Both the position numbers and the translations under genes were made by a program. Below, in pieces: positions 502 to 61,606 of a stretch of 64,000 nt of DNA (its first letter is position 1; each line of letters opens with the position of its first letter). The notes beneath the pieces were generated by a model that searched no databases, was not told the DNA's origin, and saw only the letters and a list, made by a program, of their open reading frames with translations. The DNA comes from Corallococcus silvisoli (GTDB lineage Bacteria; Myxococcota; Myxococcia; Myxococcales; Myxococcaceae), in the NCBI RefSeq assembly GCF_009909145.1, contig NZ_JAAAPJ010000005.1, positions 336,470 through 400,469 of the forward strand. Reading direction: 5' to 3'.

Positions 502-2532
502 ATGAAGTCGCGCCATCGTCCACGAACCAGAGTAGGTTCCCCCTCCCTGTTCGCTGGAGCTCCGTCGATGCCACAAGCCACACCGCGCTCGTCACCTCTG
601 GGAGCGCGTCCCAGCGTCTTCCTGCTCGCCGGAGCGTTCGTCACCGGCATGTTCCTCTTCGCCCATGGCGGCTGCGGAGGTGACGAGTGCCAGGACGCCG
701 CCGACTGCCGCTTCGATCACAGCACACCGGCCGAGGGCAAGGAGTGGGTCTGCGAGGACAAGCGCTGCGAGCAGCATCCCGTCCAGCAGCCGCCTCCGGA
801 TGCGGGCTCGGACGCGGGGATGCCCGACGCGGGGACGCCCGACTCGGGGACGCCCGACGCGGGGATGCCCGACGCGGGGATGCCCGACGCGGGGAGACCC
901 GACTCGGGGATGCCCGACTCGGGTCCCACCACGGTGAGCGTGCAGGTGCTGGCGTTCAATGACTTCCACGGACAGCTCGAGGAGCCCGCGGGCCAGATCC
1001 TGACGGGCGTGGCCCCCGACGGTGGACCGGTGCGGGTGAACGCGGGCGGCGTGACGTACTTCGCCCGGCATATCGCGGCCCTGCGGGCCACCAATCCGAA
1101 CACGGTGGTGGTGGCGGCGGGAGACCTCATCGGCGCCTCGCCGCTGCTGTCGGCGCTCTTCCACGACGAGCCCACCATCGAGGCGATGAACCTGATTGGC
1201 CTGGACCTGGTCGCGGTGGGCAATCACGAGTTCGACGAGGGCAGCACGGAGCTGTTGCGCATGCAGTCGGGCGGCTGCCACCCGGTGGATGGCTGCCTGG
1301 ACGGGGATGGCTTCCCGGGCGCGAAGTTCAAGTTCCTGGCGGCCAACGTGGCCACGGGCGTGGACCGCACGCTGTTCCCCCGCTACGACGTGCGCGAGTT
1401 CGAGGGCGTGAAGGTGGCCTTCATCGGCATGACGTTGGAGGAAACGCCGGAAATCGTCACGCCCACGGGCGTGGCGGGGCTCACCTTCAAGGACGAAGTG
1501 CAGACGGTGAACGCGCTGGTGCCGGAGCTGCGGCGGCAGGGCATCGAAGCCATCATCGTGGTGGTGCACCAGGGCGGAATCGCGACCTCGGGCTCGCTGG
1601 TGAACGACTGCAAGGGCGCGGGTGCGAACGGCCTCATCTCAGGTGCCATCGTGGGCATCGCCAAGGGCCTCGACGACGCGGTGGATGTCATCGTCAGCGG
1701 CCACACGCATCAGGCCTACAACTGCGTCATCGACGGCAAGGTCGTCACGAGCGCCTCGTCGATGGGGCAGCTCGTCACGGACATCGACCTGACGCTGAGC
1801 AAGGCGACGGGCGACGTCGTGGAGGCGCGAGCGAACAACGTCATCGTCACCCGCGACGTGCAGGAGGTCGGCGAGGTGAAGGAGCTGGTGACGAAGTACC
1901 AGGAGCTCGTCACGCCGCTGGCCAACCGGGTCGTCGGCTGGGTGGCGCAGACGCTCAGGACACAGTCAGACTCCGCGGGCCAGTCCACCCTGGGCTACGT
2001 CGTCGCGGACTCGCAGCTGGAGGCGACGAAGCCCGCGAACCTGGGTGGGGCGCAGGTGGCCTTCATGAACCCGGGCGGCGTGCGCGCGGACATCGCCCAG
2101 GGCGAGGTCACCTACGGCGAGGTCTTCACCACGCAGCCGTTCGGCAACAGCCTGGTCACCCTGACGCTGACGGGCGCGCAAATCGGGCAACTGCTGGAGC
2201 GGCAGTGGCGGTCGTCGGGAGCCACCCTCATGCTGCTTCCGTCTGCGGGCTTCACCTATGCGTTCAGCGCGTCGGCGCCCATCGGAAGCCGCGTCGACCC
2301 GGCGTCCATCCGGATCAACGGCGTGCCAGTGAGCCTGACGGCGGAGTACCGCGTCACCGCGAACAACTACCTCGCGAGTGGGGGTGATGGCTTCTCGGTG
2401 CTCGCCGAGGGGAAGAACCGGCTGGGTGGCGCCGTGGACAGCGACGCGCTGGAGGCATACCTGAAGGCACACAGCAGCCAGGCGAGCCCCTTGCCCGCCC
2501 CCGCGCTCAATCGCGTCACCGTGCGGCCCTAG
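502..2532 (+). CDS. Secreted bifunctional metallophosphatase/5'-nucleotidase (UshA-like), with an N-terminal signal and a PDAGMP low-complexity linker
   Basis: Calcineurin-like metallophosphatase motifs (AFNDFHG, GDLIG, GNHEFD) are followed by a 5'-nucleotidase C-terminal substrate-binding domain. An N-terminal hydrophobic signal and a Cys-rich segment precede the catalytic domain. Start could be ATG 502 (MKS) or ATG 568 (MPQ). Confidence 0.85.
   Translation: MKSRHRPRTRVGSPSLFAGAPSMPQATPRSSPLGARPSVFLLAGAFVTGMFLFAHGGCGGDECQDAADCRFDHSTPAEGKEWVCEDKRCEQHPVQQPPPDAGSDAGMPDAGTPDSGTPDAGMPDAGMPDAGRPDSGMPDSGPTTVSVQVLAFNDFHGQLEEPAGQILTGVAPDGGPVRVNAGGVTYFARHIAALRATNPNTVVVAAGDLIGASPLLSALFHDEPTIEAMNLIGLDLVAVGNHEFDEGSTELLRMQSGGCHPVDGCLDGDGFPGAKFKFLAANVATGVDRTLFPRYDVREFEGVKVAFIGMTLEETPEIVTPTGVAGLTFKDEVQTVNALVPELRRQGIEAIIVVVHQGGIATSGSLVNDCKGAGANGLISGAIVGIAKGLDDAVDVIVSGHTHQAYNCVIDGKVVTSASSMGQLVTDIDLTLSKATGDVVEARANNVIVTRDVQEVGEVKELVTKYQELVTPLANRVVGWVAQTLRTQSDSAGQSTLGYVVADSQLEATKPANLGGAQVAFMNPGGVRADIAQGEVTYGEVFTTQPFGNSLVTLTLTGAQIGQLLERQWRSSGATLMLLPSAGFTYAFSASAPIGSRVDPASIRINGVPVSLTAEYRVTANNYLASGGDGFSVLAEGKNRLGGAVDSDALEAYLKAHSSQASPLPAPALNRVTVRP
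799..925. repeat. Tandem 18-nt repeat (about 7 units, cccgacgcggggatgccc and variants) encoding the PDAG(M/T/R)P linker inside the 5'-nucleotidase gene
   Basis: Visible direct repetition of an 18-nt unit with only the 3rd/4th codon varying. In-frame low-complexity linker. Confidence 0.6.
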
Positions 2533-2906
2533 AGCGCCGGACAGGTCAGGTCACGACGCGCGAAGGTGACGCGCGGCGACTTCGAGGTCTGGGTCGAGCG
2601 CTCCGAGAACCGACCGCCAGCAGCGGTCGCTCGCAGACATCGGGAAGCCTCAGGAGCTTCTGCTCGCGGGCACTGCACTTCATCGTGGGCTTCCATCGGT
2701 CCAACCGGCACCTCCATGCGGAGGTGACCGGAGCACTCGGCGACGGCTCGCGTCGGCGGTGCTCGTAAGCGATCGATTTTCCCTCGGGCTGATTCCTGAT
2801 CGGCGCTCTAGCTTCCTGAAGGGGAGCGAATGCCTGGAGTTTCGCGTGCATCAGGCGATGCCCTGCGTAGGATTCAGGCCCTCACCCGTCCCCCTCCGGA
2901 GGTCCC

Positions 2907-3308
2907 ATGGCATCTCCCACCGATACGCAGGATCCCTTCGAGCGCATCTACCGCGTCTGCGAACAGGTGCCGGCCGGAAAGGTGGCCACGTACGGCGACA
3001 TCGCCGCCATCGTGGGCGGCGGCTGTGATGCGCGCATGGTGGGCCACGCGATGGCGGCCCTGGGTTCGCGCGCGGCGAAGGTGCCGTGGCAGCGCATCAT
3101 CAACCGCACGGGCGGCATCAGCACCTCCGGCCCTCGCCAGCGCGAGCTGCTGGAGGAGGAAGGCGTCGCGTTCGACGACAAGGGCCACGTGCGCATGGAC
3201 GCGCACCACTGGGCGGGACCGAGCGACGCGTGGGCGCGCGCCCACGGCTTCAGCGTGCTGCCGCCCCGGGACGCGCCAGCCCCGGCCTCGCAGCTCAAGC
3301 TCTTCTGA
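2907..3308 (+). CDS. Alkyltransferase-like protein (ATL; MGMT/Ogt DNA-binding domain family lacking the active-site Cys)
   Basis: Has the MGMT C-terminal-domain fold signature (YGDIA....VPWQRIIN). The PCHRV motif is replaced by PWQRI, i.e. Trp instead of the alkyl-acceptor Cys, which is the hallmark of ATL proteins. Confidence 0.75.
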   Translation: MASPTDTQDPFERIYRVCEQVPAGKVATYGDIAAIVGGGCDARMVGHAMAALGSRAAKVPWQRIINRTGGISTSGPRQRELLEEEGVAFDDKGHVRMDAHHWAGPSDAWARAHGFSVLPPRDAPAPASQLKLF

Positions 3309-3429
3309 AACACACCCCGCGTCGGGGCGTCCGGGCATCAGCCCGAAGCGCTCGGTGGGTCGGCTGCTTTTCAGCGCGGAATAAAGACGGCACCTTCAGG
3401 TCCTCGCCCACTCCTTGGACCTCCGAAGA

Positions 3430-3975
3430 ATGTCCCCTCCCCTGCTCCCACGGGGCCTCGTGCTCCTGGCCTGGCTGCTGGCAACCCCTGGGTTCGCGAA
3501 GGACGCGAAGGTCGGCAAGGCCCAGGGGAAGGGCCCGCGGCTGGTGCGCATCCAGGGCGCCCACCGGCTCCACCGCGACGCGGCGGCGGCCTTCGAGCGC
3601 ATGGCGGCGGAGGCTCGCGCGGCGGGGCGGACCCTGCTCGTGACGAGCGGGTGGCGTTCGTACCAGCAGCAGCGCTTCCTTTGGCGCCGCTACCGCAACG
3701 GCCTGGGGCCCAAGGCCGCGTGGCCGGGCCGCTCCAACCACAACCGCGGGCTGGCGGTGGATCTGGTCGTGGGGAGGGACATGGACTCCCCCACGTATGA
3801 ATGGCTCGCGGCGAACGCGTGCCGCTTCGGCTTCCGGCGAACGGTCGCGTCGGAGCCGTGGCACTGGGAGTACCGGCCGCGAAGCACCGCGACGCCCCAG
3901 GACGGTGAGGACTGCCTGGGGCGTCCGGTGGAGAGTGAGCCCGCGTCAGCCGTGGTCCGTCAGGACGCCAGCTAG
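3430..3975 (+). CDS. M15-family D-alanyl-D-alanine carboxypeptidase (VanY-like), secreted
   Basis: Signal peptide (LVLLAWLLATPGFA). Zn-binding motifs SGWRSYQQQ, SNHNRGLAVDL and EPWHWEY are typical of peptidase M15B/VanY. Confidence 0.8.
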   Translation: MSPPLLPRGLVLLAWLLATPGFAKDAKVGKAQGKGPRLVRIQGAHRLHRDAAAAFERMAAEARAAGRTLLVTSGWRSYQQQRFLWRRYRNGLGPKAAWPGRSNHNRGLAVDLVVGRDMDSPTYEWLAANACRFGFRRTVASEPWHWEYRPRSTATPQDGEDCLGRPVESEPASAVVRQDAS

Positions 3976-53733: not shown

Positions 53734-56700
53734 TCAGGGCACGTCCAACGCGACGCCCTGGCCCGGGACGGCCATCACCCAGCGGACGAGGTCAGGCTTG
53801 CCGCCGCAGGTGACGCGCACCTCGAACTCACGCCCCGCGGGCATGGGACTGGCGAGCGGCGTCTGCCCCTGGAGCACCTGGGAGCCCAGCGCGACGCGGC
53901 ACCCCTGGGCGCCGGTGACGCTGAGCGTGCCCCGGGCATCCGCCTGGGGCGCGGCATCCGCGAGCGTGCGCAGGTCGATGTGCTCGGCCTTCGCCACCTT
54001 GCCAAAGCGGTGCAGCTTGCCGTCCACGGCGGTGGAGACGAGCCAGCCGCCCGGATCCTCGGGCAGGGCGTGCTTGCCCTCCAGCAGCACGCCGGACACG
54101 TAGACGCGCTCACCCTCCTGGGCGTTGCGGACCTCCATGCCTCCCTTGGGCAACAGGAAGGCCAGCGCGAGCCCCGCGAGCACCAGTCCGCCTCCGCCCA
54201 CCCACAGCCCCTTGCGCTGACCGGACGTCAGGCCCTTGCCTGGCGCGGGGTGCCCGCCCGCGCTGGGAGCAACGGGCGCGGGCGGCGGCACGGCATGCAC
54301 CGGGGCCGGAGGTGGGGCCACGCGCTCTCCCGAGGCACGCGCATGCGTGGGCACGGGAGTGGAGCCAATGGGCGGCAAGGAGGCCGTGTGCGGAGGAGGC
54401 GGCGGCGCGGAGACCTGCGGCGCGGCGGCGACGGGAGGAGGCGGCGGGACCGCGGTCATCGGCGCCACGCTGGGCACGGAGACCGAGGGCCGCGCGGGCG
54501 GCTGCGGAGGAGGCCCCACGCGCGTGGGCACGTTGGCGGAAGCGGCCGGGCGCACCGCCGTCGGTGACGGCAACGGCGACACGGGCGGCGGCGCGGCAGG
54601 GCGCGAAGGACGGGGCGCGGGAGCGGCCATCACGGGCGGCGCGGCGGGAGGGCGCGGCGGTTCGGAGGCGACGGAGACGACCTCGGTGCCCCGCTCGGCG
54701 GGCTCGGGCGCGGCGGCGACGGGCGGCGGCTCCATCCGCGGCATGCTGCCGGAGCCCCCGCGCACGGGAGGCCGGGACAGGTCCGACGGAGCCCGCATGT
54801 CGCTGCCAGAACCGGAGCCCGTGCCCAGGTTGCGCGAGTGCGAACCCGTGCCCGGCATCAGCGCCCGGGGGTTGGAGCCCGTCCCCGAGCCGGCGATGGA
54901 GGACGGCGCGTACTCGGAGAGCCGGTCCCCCAGCGCCTCCTTGAAGAACTGCGCCACCGACGCGGGCGACGAGGACAGCCGGTGGTGCGCGATGACCGCT
55001 TCGATCTCCTCGCGCATCGCCGCCGCGGAGGGCGTGCGGCGCGCCGGGTCCTTCACCAGCGCGCGCAGGATGAGGTCGGACACGTCCTGCGGGATGTGCG
55101 GCTTGAGCTGCGAGGGCACCGGCGCGGGCTCGCGCACGATGGCCGCGAGCGTGGCCGCGTCATGGTCCCGGCGGAACGGCAGCTGCCCGGTGAGCAGTTC
55201 GAAGAGCACCACGCCCAGCGCGAACACGTCGTTGCGCCAGTCCAGCGGGCGGCCGCTGGCGGCCTCCGGGGAGAGGTACGAAATCTTCCCCTTGATGACG
55301 CCCGCCTGCGTCTGCTCCTCGCCCTGCACCTTGGCGATGCCGAAGTCCGACAGCTTGATGGCGCCGTCGAGCGACACGAGCACGTTGTGGGGGCTGACGT
55401 CGCGGTGGACCACCGGGTGCGCGGTGCCGGACGGGTCCACGTAGCTGTGCGCGTAGTGCAGGCCCGCCGCGACCTCCGCCACGATGCGCAGCGCGTGCTC
55501 CAGCGGCAGCGCCATGCCCTTGCGGCGCAGCTCCGTGATCAGGCGCTTGAGGTCCGGGCCGCGCACGTACTCCATCAGGATGTACGCCACGCCGTCCGTC
55601 ACGCCCACGTCGAAGGTCTGGACGATGTTGGGGTGCGTGAGGCGCGCGTTCGCGCGGGCCTCCGCGAAGAGCATGTCGACGAACTCGGGGTTCTCCGCGA
55701 ACTGCGCGAGGATCTTCTTCATCACCACGAACTTCTCGAAGCCCTTCACGCCCTGCTGCTTGGCGAGGAACACCTCCGCCATGCCGCCCTGCCCCAGCCG
55801 GCGGATGATCTGCAGCCGGGCGCTGCCGCCGTGCACGTCCGTGGGCGACGTGCCGCGGGCCCCGGGGTCCGCGTTGGTGGAGCCGAAGAGGTACTGGCTG
55901 AGCGCGCGCTGCTCCAGCGCCTCGATGTCGTCGAGCGGCTTCTCGGTGAGCGGCGTGCGCGCCAGCAGGCCCTGGAACTGCGCCAGCGCCGGGGCCCGCG
56001 CGGTGCCGCCGCAGACGGGGCACACGCGGTCCATGGTGCCCTTGGCGCGCAGCACCTCCAGGTATTCGGAGGTCTGGATGCGCTGGTGGGTGACCTGGCC
56101 GCAGTTGCGGCAGTCGCACGGCAGCCACAGCGTGGCCAGCTTCGCCGGCAGCGGCTTGGAGGACTTCGCCAGCACGCCCAGCATCGGCGGGGGCACGCGG
56201 CAGAGCACCACCTGCGCGCCCTGCGCCGCCACCTCCAGCACTTGTTCGATGCGCGGCAGGGCCTCCGGCTCCACCGTGCTCACGTGACAGCAGTCGAACG
56301 CGACGCGCCCCTCCAGGCCGGACGCGAGCCGGCGCACGTTGAGGTCGCCCTTCAGCGTGCTGGCCAGGGTGATGAAGGTGATGTCGTCCTGGATGATCTT
56401 CAGGTGCGAGGAGAGCTCGGACGGCTCCGACGGACTGCTGGCGCGCAGGTAGCGCAGCACGGCCGGGTCCACCGCGGAGAACTGCTGGCGGCGGGCGAAG
56501 TCGAAGAACTCCGTGGGCTCGTCCGCGAACTCCAGGGGCTGCGCGCACACGGGGCACTGGTGCGGCGGGGCGCCGCCCTGCTCCAGGATCTTCGCCTCCT
56601 CCACCAGCCGGACCAGCCGCAGCCGGTCCTCCTTGCAGAAGCGGCAGGTGTAGGGCGCCAGCAGGGAGAGCACGCGCGCGACGCCCGCGAAGCCCTCCAC

Positions 56701-56973
56701 CATGTTGAGCTGATCCACCACCACCGGCGGCGCGTTGACGACGTACAGGGCCGACACGCCCTGCGGCGGGTGGCCCACGAACTCAATCCACCGGCGGACG
56801 CCGAAGGAGCTGATCCGCTCCACCAGGCCCAGGTCCACCACCACCAGCCCCGACATCCCCTTGGAGGCGGGGGAGAGGGGGAAGGTCTCGTCGATCACTC
56901 CGGCCACGCGCACGTGGGTCAGACTGCCCACGCGCAGGGGGGTGATGCTGGCATTGGAAGTTTGGCTTTCCAC
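53734..56973 (-). CDS. Hanks-type Ser/Thr protein kinase with an N-terminal STAS (anti-sigma-antagonist-like) domain and Zn-ribbon, plus a C-terminal Pro-rich linker, TM helix and extracytoplasmic domain
   Basis: STAS-like segment (VIDETF....LVVVDLGLVERISSFGVRRW). CxxC...CxxC pairs. Kinase subdomains (VAMK-like VVMKK, HRDVSPHNVL, DFG, SPE). Long PPAP region, then TM GGGLVLAGLALAFLL. GTG 56973 is 5 nt after the upstream stop. Confidence 0.8.
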   Translation of the reverse strand: MESQTSNASITPLRVGSLTHVRVAGVIDETFPLSPASKGMSGLVVVDLGLVERISSFGVRRWIEFVGHPPQGVSALYVVNAPPVVVDQLNMVEGFAGVARVLSLLAPYTCRFCKEDRLRLVRLVEEAKILEQGGAPPHQCPVCAQPLEFADEPTEFFDFARRQQFSAVDPAVLRYLRASSPSEPSELSSHLKIIQDDITFITLASTLKGDLNVRRLASGLEGRVAFDCCHVSTVEPEALPRIEQVLEVAAQGAQVVLCRVPPPMLGVLAKSSKPLPAKLATLWLPCDCRNCGQVTHQRIQTSEYLEVLRAKGTMDRVCPVCGGTARAPALAQFQGLLARTPLTEKPLDDIEALEQRALSQYLFGSTNADPGARGTSPTDVHGGSARLQIIRRLGQGGMAEVFLAKQQGVKGFEKFVVMKKILAQFAENPEFVDMLFAEARANARLTHPNIVQTFDVGVTDGVAYILMEYVRGPDLKRLITELRRKGMALPLEHALRIVAEVAAGLHYAHSYVDPSGTAHPVVHRDVSPHNVLVSLDGAIKLSDFGIAKVQGEEQTQAGVIKGKISYLSPEAASGRPLDWRNDVFALGVVLFELLTGQLPFRRDHDAATLAAIVREPAPVPSQLKPHIPQDVSDLILRALVKDPARRTPSAAAMREEIEAVIAHHRLSSSPASVAQFFKEALGDRLSEYAPSSIAGSGTGSNPRALMPGTGSHSRNLGTGSGSGSDMRAPSDLSRPPVRGGSGSMPRMEPPPVAAAPEPAERGTEVVSVASEPPRPPAAPPVMAAPAPRPSRPAAPPPVSPLPSPTAVRPAASANVPTRVGPPPQPPARPSVSVPSVAPMTAVPPPPPVAAAPQVSAPPPPPHTASLPPIGSTPVPTHARASGERVAPPPAPVHAVPPPAPVAPSAGGHPAPGKGLTSGQRKGLWVGGGGLVLAGLALAFLLPKGGMEVRNAQEGERVYVSGVLLEGKHALPEDPGGWLVSTAVDGKLHRFGKVAKAEHIDLRTLADAAPQADARGTLSVTGAQGCRVALGSQVLQGQTPLASPMPAGREFEVRVTCGGKPDLVRWVMAVPGQGVALDVP

Positions 56974-56977
56974 CCGC

Positions 56978-57823
56978 CTACCCTCGTTCCAGACAGAACA
57001 GCAGCGACTTGGGCTGCGCGGCCCGGCGGCGTGTATCCCCCAGGTCCACCCCACAAGCGAATTGCGTCCGCTTTCCCGGGGTCACCCGCACCGCCACTGC
57101 GTCGCTGTGCTCCAGGATGCGCCGCAGACCCAGGCCCGCGCCACCGCCAGAAGCATCCACCTGCGCCTTCTCACCCCACGCCTTCACCACCCGCACCAGC
57201 GGTGACACCGTCAGCCGGCCGAAGCGGTCCGTCGCCTCCAGCCACGCGCGGCCCTCCGCCACCGCCCAGGACACCAGGCAGCGATCTTCCTCGGCCACCG
57301 CCTGCACCTGTCCCCGCCGGTGGGCGTACTTCGGCTGCCCCTCGGCGTCCACCGGGGCGTCGAGGAGCGCGTTCACGCCAATCTCATGGACGACATCCGC
57401 CACCCGGCTGGCCGCGCCCTTGGAGGCCCCCGTCCGCAGGACCTCCTCCGCGGCGCGCTCGCCCGCGGCCGTCACCTCCGCCACGCTGCCCAGCCAGGCC
57501 ACGGACGTGGCGGCCTCCCGCGGAATCAGGGGCTCGCCGCGCAACAGCGAGCTCAAGAGCCGCGCCTCCCAGCCGGACGGCTGCCCCGCCTCGCCGCGAG
57601 TGGCCAGGAGCAGGGCCGGGGGCCGCTGCTCCAACATCGCCGCGTGCGCGGCCGTCAGCCGCCCGTCGAAGAGCACCAGTCGCGGCGCCGCGTCGTCACC
57701 CCGCCCCAGCAACAGGCCATCCCGGGCGAGCACCCCGGAGGCCTTTTCCAGCGCCTCCGGCGTGAGGGTCGTATCCGGCGTCAACTTCAGGGGAGCATCC
57801 TTCACGGCGGCGACGGTATCCAA
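56978..57823 (-). CDS. RsbW/SpoIIAB-like HATPase_c protein (putative anti-sigma-factor-type Ser kinase)
   Basis: N-box-like HEIGVNALLDA and G-box GGGAGLGLRRI in the C-terminal half. Start (TTG 57823 or GTG 57805) is uncertain. Confidence 0.5.
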   Translation of the reverse strand: MDTVAAVKDAPLKLTPDTTLTPEALEKASGVLARDGLLLGRGDDAAPRLVLFDGRLTAAHAAMLEQRPPALLLATRGEAGQPSGWEARLLSSLLRGEPLIPREAATSVAWLGSVAEVTAAGERAAEEVLRTGASKGAASRVADVVHEIGVNALLDAPVDAEGQPKYAHRRGQVQAVAEEDRCLVSWAVAEGRAWLEATDRFGRLTVSPLVRVVKAWGEKAQVDASGGGAGLGLRRILEHSDAVAVRVTPGKRTQFACGVDLGDTRRRAAQPKSLLFCLERG

Positions 57824-57831
57824 ACAGCGCC

Positions 57832-60453
57832 CTAATAATGGAGTCGAACTTCTGTGAAGACGCCCAGCGGCGGAGCGGGGAAGCCGTGGGACTCCTCGTA
57901 CTTCGCGTTGAACAGGTTCGTGCCCAGCAGGGACACCGCCACCCGTTCGTGGACGTTGAAGCCCACGCGCGCCGTCGCGGTGATGTAGCTGGGCAGCTTC
58001 ACGCGGGTGGTGGTGCCCGCGTTCTCGTCCACCACGAAGCCGGGGTCGAAGCGCGGGCCCACGAACAGGCCGTAGAGCTCCACGAAGGCGAACTTCCCGA
58101 TGTTGGTGCGGCCGCGCAGGTAGACGCGGTGGCTGGGCGCGTAGTCCAGCGGGTAGCTGGCCCCGCCGCCCACGGGCAGCGCCTGGGCATCCAGGAACTG
58201 GTAGGCCACGTCGAAGGACGAGTTGAGGGACGGCACCTGCGCCGCCGCCTCCGCCTCGAAGCCCGCCACGCGCGCGTCGCCCAGGTTGCGGAACTGGGAC
58301 GTGGAGCCGAAGACGAGCTCCTGATTGATGAAGTTGCGGGCGCGGTTGTAGAAGCCCGTGCCCGTCAGGCGCACCCGGCGGTCGAACGGCCAGAAGTCCA
58401 CCGCCGCCTCCACCGTGTCCAGCGTCTCCGCGCGCAGCGACGGGTTGCCCAGCAGCGTCGCGGCGTACATCTGCTGGTTGATGGCGAGCTCCGCCAGCGT
58501 GGGCGCGCGGAAGGCGCGGCCGTAGTTGGTGCGCAGCGTGAGCAGCTCCGGGATGGCGTGGAACACGACGCTGGCGCGCGGGGAGATCTGATCCGTGCGC
58601 GCCTCCCAGACCTTTTCGGGGATCTGGTAGTTGTCGTAGCGGGCGCCCGCGCCCACCACCAGCCGGTCCGTGGCGCGGAACTCCGCGTCCACGAAGCCGC
58701 CCAGGATGGTCTGCTTCGTGTCATCCAGGGTCAGGCCCGGGAGCACGTTCTGGTTGTTCACCTGGTCGGCCTTCACGTCGCCGCCCACGGTGACGGACAG
58801 CCGGTCCAGGGAGAAGAGCGCGCGCGCCTCGCCGCCCAGCCGGCTGCGCTTGCCCAGCGTGTCCTCCAGCGCGCCCGTGATTTCATTCTCCAGCGTCACG
58901 TTGCGGCGCTTGAAGAACGCATAGCCCTGGGCGAACACGCGCACGTTGTCCGTCACCTGCTGATCCAGCTGCACGGCGGCGTTCAGGTTCTGGACGTGCT
59001 CGTTGTCCTGCGCGGTGTAGTGGCAGCGACCGCAGTTGCCCACGGTGGAGATGTTCTGCCCACCGGGCCGGCCGATGTTGCCGTCGGTGAAGTCCGCGTC
59101 CAGCGCGAGGGGACCCACGCGGACCTTGCCGTTCACCTGGTGCACCAGCGAGTCCTCGTTGGTGTCCGTCTGGTTGAGCTGCGGGTTGTTGAAGAGCTGC
59201 GGGCCGTCCGAGCCGTAGCCGTAGTAGCCGAGCAGCGCCTCCACGGGGCCACCGCGGCCGGCGACGTTGGTCTGCAGGCGCCACGTCTTGTCCTGGCCGG
59301 CGAGGATGCGCGCGTCGGCGCCCACGTTCTGGCCCTTGGCGATGAGATCGCCCGGCTGGCGCTCGATGATGTTGATGACGCCGCTGAAGGCGTTGGAGCC
59401 GTAGAGCGACGAACCCGGGCCGCGGATGACCTCCACCTGCTTGAGGTTGGTCAGCGGCGTCGTCTCATCCGCGTAGAACTGGCCCGTCCAGGGATCCGTC
59501 AGCGGACGGCCATCCTTGAGCAGCAGGAGGCGGTTGGACAGGTAGTTGGAGCCCAGGCCGCGCGCGCTCACCGCCGCCTTGCGCATGGAGCCCCGGCGGC
59601 ACTCCATGCCGGGGAAGTACTGGATGGCCTCGCAGAGCGAGAACTGGCCGGTGCCCTCCAGCTCCTCCGCCGGAATCCAGGACACCGTGAGGGGCACGTC
59701 GGAGATGCGCTGGCTGCGCTTGGAGGCCGTGGTGACCATGGCCTCGCTCAGCGCCTGGTTGACGGTCTTCTCGAAGTCGTCGCCGTTGCCCAGCGCATCC
59801 GGGCCATCCAGGCCGGAGAGGCTGGAGGGCGGCGGCATCGCGCGGTCCGACGCGGGCTCCGTGAAGGGCGCGCGGTCCGGGACGTTCTCGTTCATCCGCG
59901 GCTGCGAGCCCGACAGCACCGCGCCAGCGCCCAGGTGCTGCGCGGGCGGCGGGTTGGCCGGCACATCCGACGTCAGCGGGCCGTCGTAGGGAGACGGCGA
60001 CGCGACGGGCGTCCCCGGCGAGGCGACGGGCATCGGATCCGCCACCGACGGGCCCGGGCCGGGCGCGGCCACCGGGGCCGGCTGCTCCACGGGCGGCGTG
60101 GCGACGAACGGCTCCTCCGTGGGAGATGGCGCGGCGTCCGGCTCCACGGGCGGCGGAGGCGTCTTCGCCCCCCTGCGCGTCTTCGCCGTGCGCGCGGGTT
60201 TCGTCCCCGGCGCGGCGCTCTTCGCCGCTGGCGTGGCGCTCTTCGCCGCTGGCGTGGCGGGCGCGGCACGCTTGCGCGTGGCCTTCGTCCGCGTCTTGGG
60301 AGCCGGCTCCTGGGCCTCCTGGGCCTGGGCACGTTCCACCGTGAACAGCGACAGGGCGCACAGCACCAACGTCAGACGCGCGAACGCGCCCGGCCGTCCT
60401 GCAAGCCCCTTCACCGCGAAGCTTCGCGGCCCACCGTACTCAGTCGAGTCCAT
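57832..60453 (-). CDS. TonB-dependent outer-membrane receptor with a long Ala/Pro/Lys-rich N-terminal extension
   Basis: Plug domain (DVPLTVSWIPAEEL...VEVIRGPGSSLYGSNAFSGVINI). 22-strand barrel ending in the terminal aromatic motif ...EVRLHY. N-terminal ATPAAKS repeats. Confidence 0.85.
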   Translation of the reverse strand: MDSTEYGGPRSFAVKGLAGRPGAFARLTLVLCALSLFTVERAQAQEAQEPAPKTRTKATRKRAAPATPAAKSATPAAKSAAPGTKPARTAKTRRGAKTPPPPVEPDAAPSPTEEPFVATPPVEQPAPVAAPGPGPSVADPMPVASPGTPVASPSPYDGPLTSDVPANPPPAQHLGAGAVLSGSQPRMNENVPDRAPFTEPASDRAMPPPSSLSGLDGPDALGNGDDFEKTVNQALSEAMVTTASKRSQRISDVPLTVSWIPAEELEGTGQFSLCEAIQYFPGMECRRGSMRKAAVSARGLGSNYLSNRLLLLKDGRPLTDPWTGQFYADETTPLTNLKQVEVIRGPGSSLYGSNAFSGVINIIERQPGDLIAKGQNVGADARILAGQDKTWRLQTNVAGRGGPVEALLGYYGYGSDGPQLFNNPQLNQTDTNEDSLVHQVNGKVRVGPLALDADFTDGNIGRPGGQNISTVGNCGRCHYTAQDNEHVQNLNAAVQLDQQVTDNVRVFAQGYAFFKRRNVTLENEITGALEDTLGKRSRLGGEARALFSLDRLSVTVGGDVKADQVNNQNVLPGLTLDDTKQTILGGFVDAEFRATDRLVVGAGARYDNYQIPEKVWEARTDQISPRASVVFHAIPELLTLRTNYGRAFRAPTLAELAINQQMYAATLLGNPSLRAETLDTVEAAVDFWPFDRRVRLTGTGFYNRARNFINQELVFGSTSQFRNLGDARVAGFEAEAAAQVPSLNSSFDVAYQFLDAQALPVGGGASYPLDYAPSHRVYLRGRTNIGKFAFVELYGLFVGPRFDPGFVVDENAGTTTRVKLPSYITATARVGFNVHERVAVSLLGTNLFNAKYEESHGFPAPPLGVFTEVRLHY

Positions 60454-60688: not shown

Positions 60689-61606
60689 TCAGTCGTCGGG
60701 CTGTTCGGCGGAGACGGCCAGGTCGTCCGCGAACGGCGGCAGCGCGGGACCCAGCGAATCCGACTGCACCAGCGCGGGCGTCTCCACCCGCAGGTCGGGG
60801 GCGTCCGCGAAGACGGGCAGCCGGCGCGGAGGACCCTGGGTGACGAGCTTGCGGAAGTCGTCGAATTCACGGCCCTGGATGCGGGCGAAGGCGTCGAACG
60901 GGGCCACCGCCCCCACTTCGGGCAGGGACTGGGCCAGCGCGCTCCCCCCGCCCTTCAAGTCCACCAGCACCGCGCTCGGCACCCGGGCGCTGCGGAAGAG
61001 CACGCGCTGGTCCTTGGGGACGTGCGCCACGGGAACGAGCGCGGCCTCCGCGCCCTTCGCCTCCAGCATCTTCACCGCCGACTCCACGTTGGGCACCGGC
61101 ACCAGCTTGAAATGACGCTGCGCGTCCAGGTCTCCGCCCAGGACGACGTGGGAGACGAACTTGGGATCCGCGGGGCCCGCGCCCTTGACGAGCGCCATGC
61201 GCTTGCCGGCGAGGTCCTTCACGGTGCCCTTCTGGGTGGAGATGATGGCCCAGCGCTGCTGCGTCTCACCGGCGTGCGGCGCGTACGCCACGGGGTCCGC
61301 CTTGGCGCCCAGCTGCACGGCGGCCCAGGCGTCCACCACGGCGAAGTCGATCTGCCCCTCGCCCACCGCCTTGGAGAAGTCCTCGTAGCGGCCGAAGCTG
61401 CGGGCGGCGACGGGGCGCCCCAGGGCGGCCTCCAGCTTCTGGGCCAGCGCCTCCGCGTACTGGAAGCGCTCCTGGCCGTCCGACAGCGTGGTGGCGAGGA
61501 ACACGCCCAGCGTCGCCTTCTTGGGCGCCGCGGACGCGGGGAGTGCGACGAACAGCACGGCGGCGAGCAGGAGGCTCCACCGCGCGACAAGGGATGGCGT
61601 CTTCAC
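60689..61606 (-). CDS. PhnD/SsuA-like periplasmic substrate-binding protein (phosphonate/phosphite-type ABC transporter binding-protein family)
   Basis: Signal peptide. Venus-flytrap two-lobe pattern resembling PhnD-family binding proteins. GTGA overlap with the upstream gene. Confidence 0.6.
   Translation of the reverse strand: MKTPSLVARWSLLLAAVLFVALPASAAPKKATLGVFLATTLSDGQERFQYAEALAQKLEAALGRPVAARSFGRYEDFSKAVGEGQIDFAVVDAWAAVQLGAKADPVAYAPHAGETQQRWAIISTQKGTVKDLAGKRMALVKGAGPADPKFVSHVVLGGDLDAQRHFKLVPVPNVESAVKMLEAKGAEAALVPVAHVPKDQRVLFRSARVPSAVLVDLKGGGSALAQSLPEVGAVAPFDAFARIQGREFDDFRKLVTQGPPRRLPVFADAPDLRVETPALVQSDSLGPALPPFADDLAVSAEQPDD

Follow-up and report, generated by a model that had tools for sequence, protein, structure and literature searches.

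A partner-switching-type module predicted to act on a Hanks-type receptor kinase in Corallococcus silvisoli

The window analysed here, a stretch of 64,000 nucleotides from Corallococcus silvisoli, carries on its minus strand a 281-aa ORF (ORF281, 57823..56978) followed, after a gap of 4 nt, by a gene for a 1079-aa Hanks kinase (56973..53734). A preliminary description of this DNA had placed an HATPase gene 5 nt upstream of the kinase; the adjacency holds, and the gap shortens by one nucleotide when counted from GTG 56973, the sensible start within an ORF listed as beginning at 57054, with GGAACGAGGG just 5' of the start codon. ORF281 has an alternative GTG start at 57805, which is the one NCBI uses for orthologues. 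The GC3 values of ORF281 and the kinase ORF (0.88 and 0.94) are as in real genes of this 70% GC genome, and the M. xanthus orthologue of the kinase is encoded immediately downstream of MXAN_4558. The features of ORF281 are the following:

56978..57823, minus strand: ORF281, orthologue of MXAN_4558; start TTG 57823 or GTG 57805, stop TAG 56980-56978
57488..57823, minus strand: N-terminal alpha/beta domain (aa 1-112), beta-alpha-beta repeats in the secondary structure of the model
56981..57487, minus strand: GHKL (Bergerat) domain (aa 113-281)
57353..57388, minus strand: N-box HEIGVNALLDAP; E147 and N151 are invariant columns in alignment A1
57212..57229, minus strand: G1-like box DRFGRL; D199, G202 and L204 invariant
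57119..57148, minus strand: G2 box GGGAGLGLRR; G226-G232 invariant, RsbW counterpart EGGLGLYLME
56981..57040, minus strand: C-terminal tail G-D-T-RRR-AAQP-KS-LLF; G262, R265-R267, K272 and S273 invariant

ORF281 belongs to a conserved family, with 185 relatives in the database, MXAN_4558 among them, and, judging by its sequence and predicted structure, it is a divergent GHKL ATPase of the RsbW/SpoIIAB branch that has kept its ATP-binding motifs intact. Structure prediction places its Bergerat fold nearer to SpoIIAB/RsbW than to the CA domains of histidine kinases, the nearest structural relatives being SpoIIAB, RsbW and UsfX, and residues E147, N151, D199, G202 and G226-G232 are invariant across 32 diverse sequences. 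The N-box has its RsbW counterpart in SEACTNAVQHA (sequence verified against 6m36), the G1 box is a D-R-F-G variant of D-x-G-x-G with atypical spacing, and a low-confidence loop preceding the G2 box in the model is the putative ATP lid. At the level of sequence profiles, ORF281 and 31 relatives gave no match over the curated thresholds of Pfam/NCBIfam, and hhalign of ORF281 against RsbW itself gave none. The ORF281 profile matches P0241 at E 1e-21, where HATPase_c_2 (PF13581) scores 27.5 bits on the same region against a cut-off of 27.4, and several other remote members of the family score below that threshold.

The earlier view of ORF281 as an HATPase-like protein is thus borne out but incomplete, as some 112 aa at the N-terminus form an extra alpha/beta domain. 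This is possibly a degenerate receiver-like domain: in Foldseek, full-length ORF281 aligns, with a very high rmsd, to the two-domain REC-Bergerat protein LvrC (9qih; PMC13269768), and in P0233, a member of the family, a weak Response_reg match precedes HATPase_c_2. The LvrC receiver is canonical and has its acceptor Asp, whereas the alignment of the ORF281 N-domain contains no invariant acidic pocket. The C-terminal tail of ORF281 is not present in RsbW or SpoIIAB.

The second gene encodes a receptor kinase with the following parts:

53734..56973, minus strand: STAS-ZnR-STAS-ZnR Hanks-type Ser/Thr receptor kinase, 1079 aa from GTG 56973
56650..56958, minus strand: STAS1 (aa 6-108)
56806..56808, minus strand: codon of Ser56, candidate phospho-acceptor, in the motif R-I-S55-S56-F-G-V-R-R-W at 56788-56817
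56545..56646, minus strand: Zn-ribbon 1, C110-x2-C113 ... C140-x2-C143; the four Cys are invariant in alignment A2
56119..56418, minus strand: STAS2 (aa 186-285), a duplicate of STAS1
56011..56112, minus strand: Zn-ribbon 2, C288-x2-C291 ... C318-x2-C321
54994..55812, minus strand: Hanks kinase domain (aa 388-660), Pfam Pkinase E 3.3e-42
54229..54906, minus strand: Pro/Ala-rich linker (aa 690-915), 25% Pro
54148..54210, minus strand: single transmembrane helix (aa 922-942), the only place where Kyte-Doolittle windows reach 1.9-2.1
53737..54147, minus strand: C-terminal extracytoplasmic domain, 137 aa

The fusion of STAS and Zn-ribbon to the kinase had been recognised before, though as a single copy; the cytoplasmic N-terminus in fact holds two STAS + Zn-ribbon modules. 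Both the RsbW/SpoIIAB-like fold of ORF281 and the STAS fold of the kinase, named in the preliminary description, are recovered by structure prediction, while the corresponding family HMMs stay below curated thresholds: in Pfam, no STAS HMM matches the kinase over threshold (STAS_2 at E 0.1 and 13.2 bits against a cut-off of 29.2), and precomputed PF01740 matches exist on some of its homologues. In the STAS1 model, residue 56 is the first of helix alpha2, the same place as that of SpoIIAA Ser58 and RsbV Ser56, and S56 also falls on SpoIIAA Ser58 in a weak hhalign alignment (probability 22%, E 9e-4). This candidate phospho-acceptor Ser is kept in every copy examined, of which 61 match the motif exactly and one has an F-to-Y change, and residue 55 is always S or T. 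Compared with the canonical D-S-S/T-G-L-G, the S/T-S-F-G-V motif of STAS1 is missing the preceding Asp, and, by analogy with the STAS domains of transporters, a conserved helix N-cap Ser could be purely structural. STAS2, which hhalign matches to STAS1 with a probability of 99% (E 1.6e-18), has no phosphorylatable residue, the Ser position being occupied by Pro (VSTVEPEA).

The remainder of the protein is as first described, on the evidence of Pfam, motifs and Kyte-Doolittle profiles. The Hanks domain is predicted to be catalytically competent, with a G-loop GQGGMA at 394, K419, HRD at 523, DFG at 543 and SPE at 568. The C-terminal extracytoplasmic domain has no Pfam match, and its identity among orthologues is 86-93% within Corallococcus and 34-52% outside it.

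Upstream of the pair, three further genes lie in the window:

57832..60453, minus strand: TonB-dependent receptor (Plug + barrel, Pfam), directly upstream, its stop 8 nt before the ORF281 TTG
60689..61606, minus strand: PhnD-like periplasmic binding protein, 305 aa from GTG 61606; Pfam Phosphonate-bd E 1.8e-10
61603..64000, minus strand: TPR protein, periplasmic (Pfam TPR), truncated at its 5' end by the window edge

The TonB-dependent receptor gene adjoins ORF281 in 47 of 52 loci. The PhnD-like protein has a signal peptide, as does an orthologue of the TPR protein, and its gene overlaps the TPR stop by 4 nt. In orthologous loci, a Cache-like/HAMP/SpoIIE gene lies directly upstream of the TPR gene (e.g. 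at 1894-3711 of locus L005), and this HAMP-SpoIIE PP2C heads the operon in 41 of 43 loci. The orthologous loci place its counterpart here past base 64000, just outside the window, which is why the phosphatase was missed before. A PP2C, a GHKL kinase and a STAS protein, the components of a partner switch, are accordingly encoded together in the orthologous loci, the PP2C gene lying four genes away from the ORF281/kinase pair. Three divergent MAG loci (L052, L060 and L061) have either lost the TPR, PhnD and TonB genes or carry them inverted, and still keep the SpoIIE gene beside ORF281; three others (L054, L057 and L058) show no SpoIIE within reach. M. xanthus has no SpoIIE-like phosphatase besides the orthologous Mxan4562 (PMC2887360). 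That species also encodes two COG1366 and two COG2172 proteins, which might be alternative clients of the PP2C.

The genes for ORF281 and the STAS-kinase are inseparable in evolution. The kinase gene directly follows ORF281 in all 55 informative myxobacterial loci, that is, those extending far enough to show the neighbouring gene, and the adjacency holds without exception across Myxococcaceae and Archangiaceae, which is more than chance. In three distant lineages, too, a STAS-kinase lies beside an ORF281-like gene (hhalign probability 98-99%), up- or downstream, the order having been swapped once. Natural fusions were also found: P0172 joins STAS-ZnR to an ORF281-like part (E 3.5e-31 and 2e-66), and P0289 joins dCache-HAMP-GAF-SpoIIE to one. 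The invariant and order-swapped adjacency, the fusion of STAS-ZnR with an ORF281-like protein and the operon PP2C together argue for a functional coupling beyond proximity, and so support the regulatory link between HATPase and receptor kinase through STAS that had been suggested earlier.

With a probability of roughly 55%, we interpret the locus, from its sequences and structural models, as a phospho-module of the partner-switching type that has a Hanks-type receptor kinase, instead of a sigma factor, as its output, which suggests that the classic sigma-factor partner switch has been rewired for the control of a eukaryotic-like kinase. ORF281 would bind STAS1 and phosphorylate Ser56 with ATP, and the membrane PP2C would strip the phosphate off again, its periplasmic sensor probably reading a ligand that the TonB receptor and the binding protein bring in. 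Whether STAS1 carries the phosphate, together with ORF281 docking, would then set the activity of the adjacent Hanks kinase, by activation or inhibition, possibly through occlusion of the kinase domain or altered N-terminal dimerisation, perhaps supported by the Zn-ribbons. The kinase's own extracytoplasmic C-terminal domain may provide a second input.

A classical anti-sigma system, in which ORF281 sequesters an unlinked sigma factor or other target, STAS1 is the releasing anti-anti-sigma, and the Hanks kinase and PP2C are inputs, seems to us unlikely. SpoIIAB, RsbW and UsfX, structurally closest to ORF281, are indeed anti-sigma factors, REC-Bergerat proteins such as LvrC have been proposed to be such (PMC13269768), and the extra domain and conserved tail of ORF281 could bind a third partner; modules of this type, however, commonly have non-sigma outputs (PMC7647112; bioRxiv 10.64898/2026.04.08.717354). 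Moreover, Pfam detected no sigma factor among the conserved-operon genes examined, the only universally linked partner of ORF281 is the STAS-kinase, and the STAS-ZnR::ORF281 fusion is at least equally compatible with an intramolecular switch.

We also judge it quite unlikely that ORF281 phosphorylates nothing and serves as an ATP-dependent docking subunit or 'anti-kinase' acting purely by binding STAS1, with Ser56 being structural or phosphorylated by the Hanks kinase. Some RsbW homologues, e.g. UsfX, are not known to have kinase activity, and the STAS1 motif is non-canonical, but S/T-S is found at positions 55/56 everywhere, and the Mg/ATP residues in the N, G1 and G2 boxes do not vary in a family of ~45-90% identity, which would be unexpected for a pure scaffold. 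Phosphorylation of the anti-anti-sigma homologue Rv0516c by M. tuberculosis PknD offers a precedent (Greenstein 2007, cited in PMC2877116), and the invariant K272-S273 of the ORF281 tail could conversely be a target of the Hanks kinase; the co-conserved SpoIIE-type phosphatase, however, belongs to the class that resets STAS phospho-serines. Mere co-transcription, with STAS domains serving ligand or nucleotide binding or kinase oligomerisation, is very improbable: the STAS domains of SulP/SLC26 transporters and MlaB do work without phosphorylation and the Pfam STAS signal is sub-threshold, yet the adjacency has no exception in 55 loci and persists in distant lineages where the gene order is swapped, and exactly these two modules occur naturally fused.

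The wiring of ORF281 and STAS-kinase is so far uncharacterised, as first supposed; it is nevertheless not a new kind of switch, because non-sigma switches are known, some with an effector-fused STAS, and STAS-kinase fusions of Sorangium were mentioned in passing in 2010 (PMC2887360). The partner-switching reading has a close parallel in Anabaena PCC 7120, where HenR and Alr3423 act on a STAS domain fused directly to the regulated enzyme, the All4160 transferase, again a non-sigma output (bioRxiv 10.64898/2026.04.08.717354). There, an RsbW-type kinase phosphorylates the conserved Ser and a SpoIIE-like phosphatase counteracts it, which is the scheme proposed here; but that system regulates a sugar transferase, has a receiver domain as the input to its phosphatase, does not have all its genes in one cluster, and contains neither Zn-ribbons nor a STAS duplication. 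SiaABCD of Pseudomonas aeruginosa comprises the HAMP-PP2C SiaA, the RsbW-like kinase SiaB, the STAS-like SiaC and the diguanylate cyclase SiaD (PMC7647112); its STAS-like protein is free-standing and its output a cyclase, whereas in the present locus the Hanks receptor kinase that would be the output itself carries two STAS + Zn-ribbon modules, ORF281 has its extra N-terminal domain, and the operon adds the TonB receptor, the PhnD-like and the TPR protein.

With the Bacillus switches RsbU/RsbV/RsbW-SigB and SpoIIE/SpoIIAA/SpoIIAB-SigF the locus shares the folds of PP2C, STAS and GHKL Ser kinase and the acceptor Ser at the start of alpha2, with a sequence similarity too low for HMMER and hhalign to detect; unlike them, it has no sigma factor gene among the operon genes examined, and its STAS domains lie inside a 1079-aa membrane kinase. 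Two M. tuberculosis systems, PknD/Rv0516c, where the Hanks kinase writes the phosphate onto a separate STAS protein, and Rv1364c, a multidomain RsbU-RsbW-RsbV fusion, differ in having no RsbW-type kinase dedicated to a Hanks kinase. CapK (PMC13373217) is an RsbW-like kinase that, similarly to what we propose for ORF281, phosphorylates an adjacent STAS-containing effector, although that effector, CapS, is a DNA-binding repressor.

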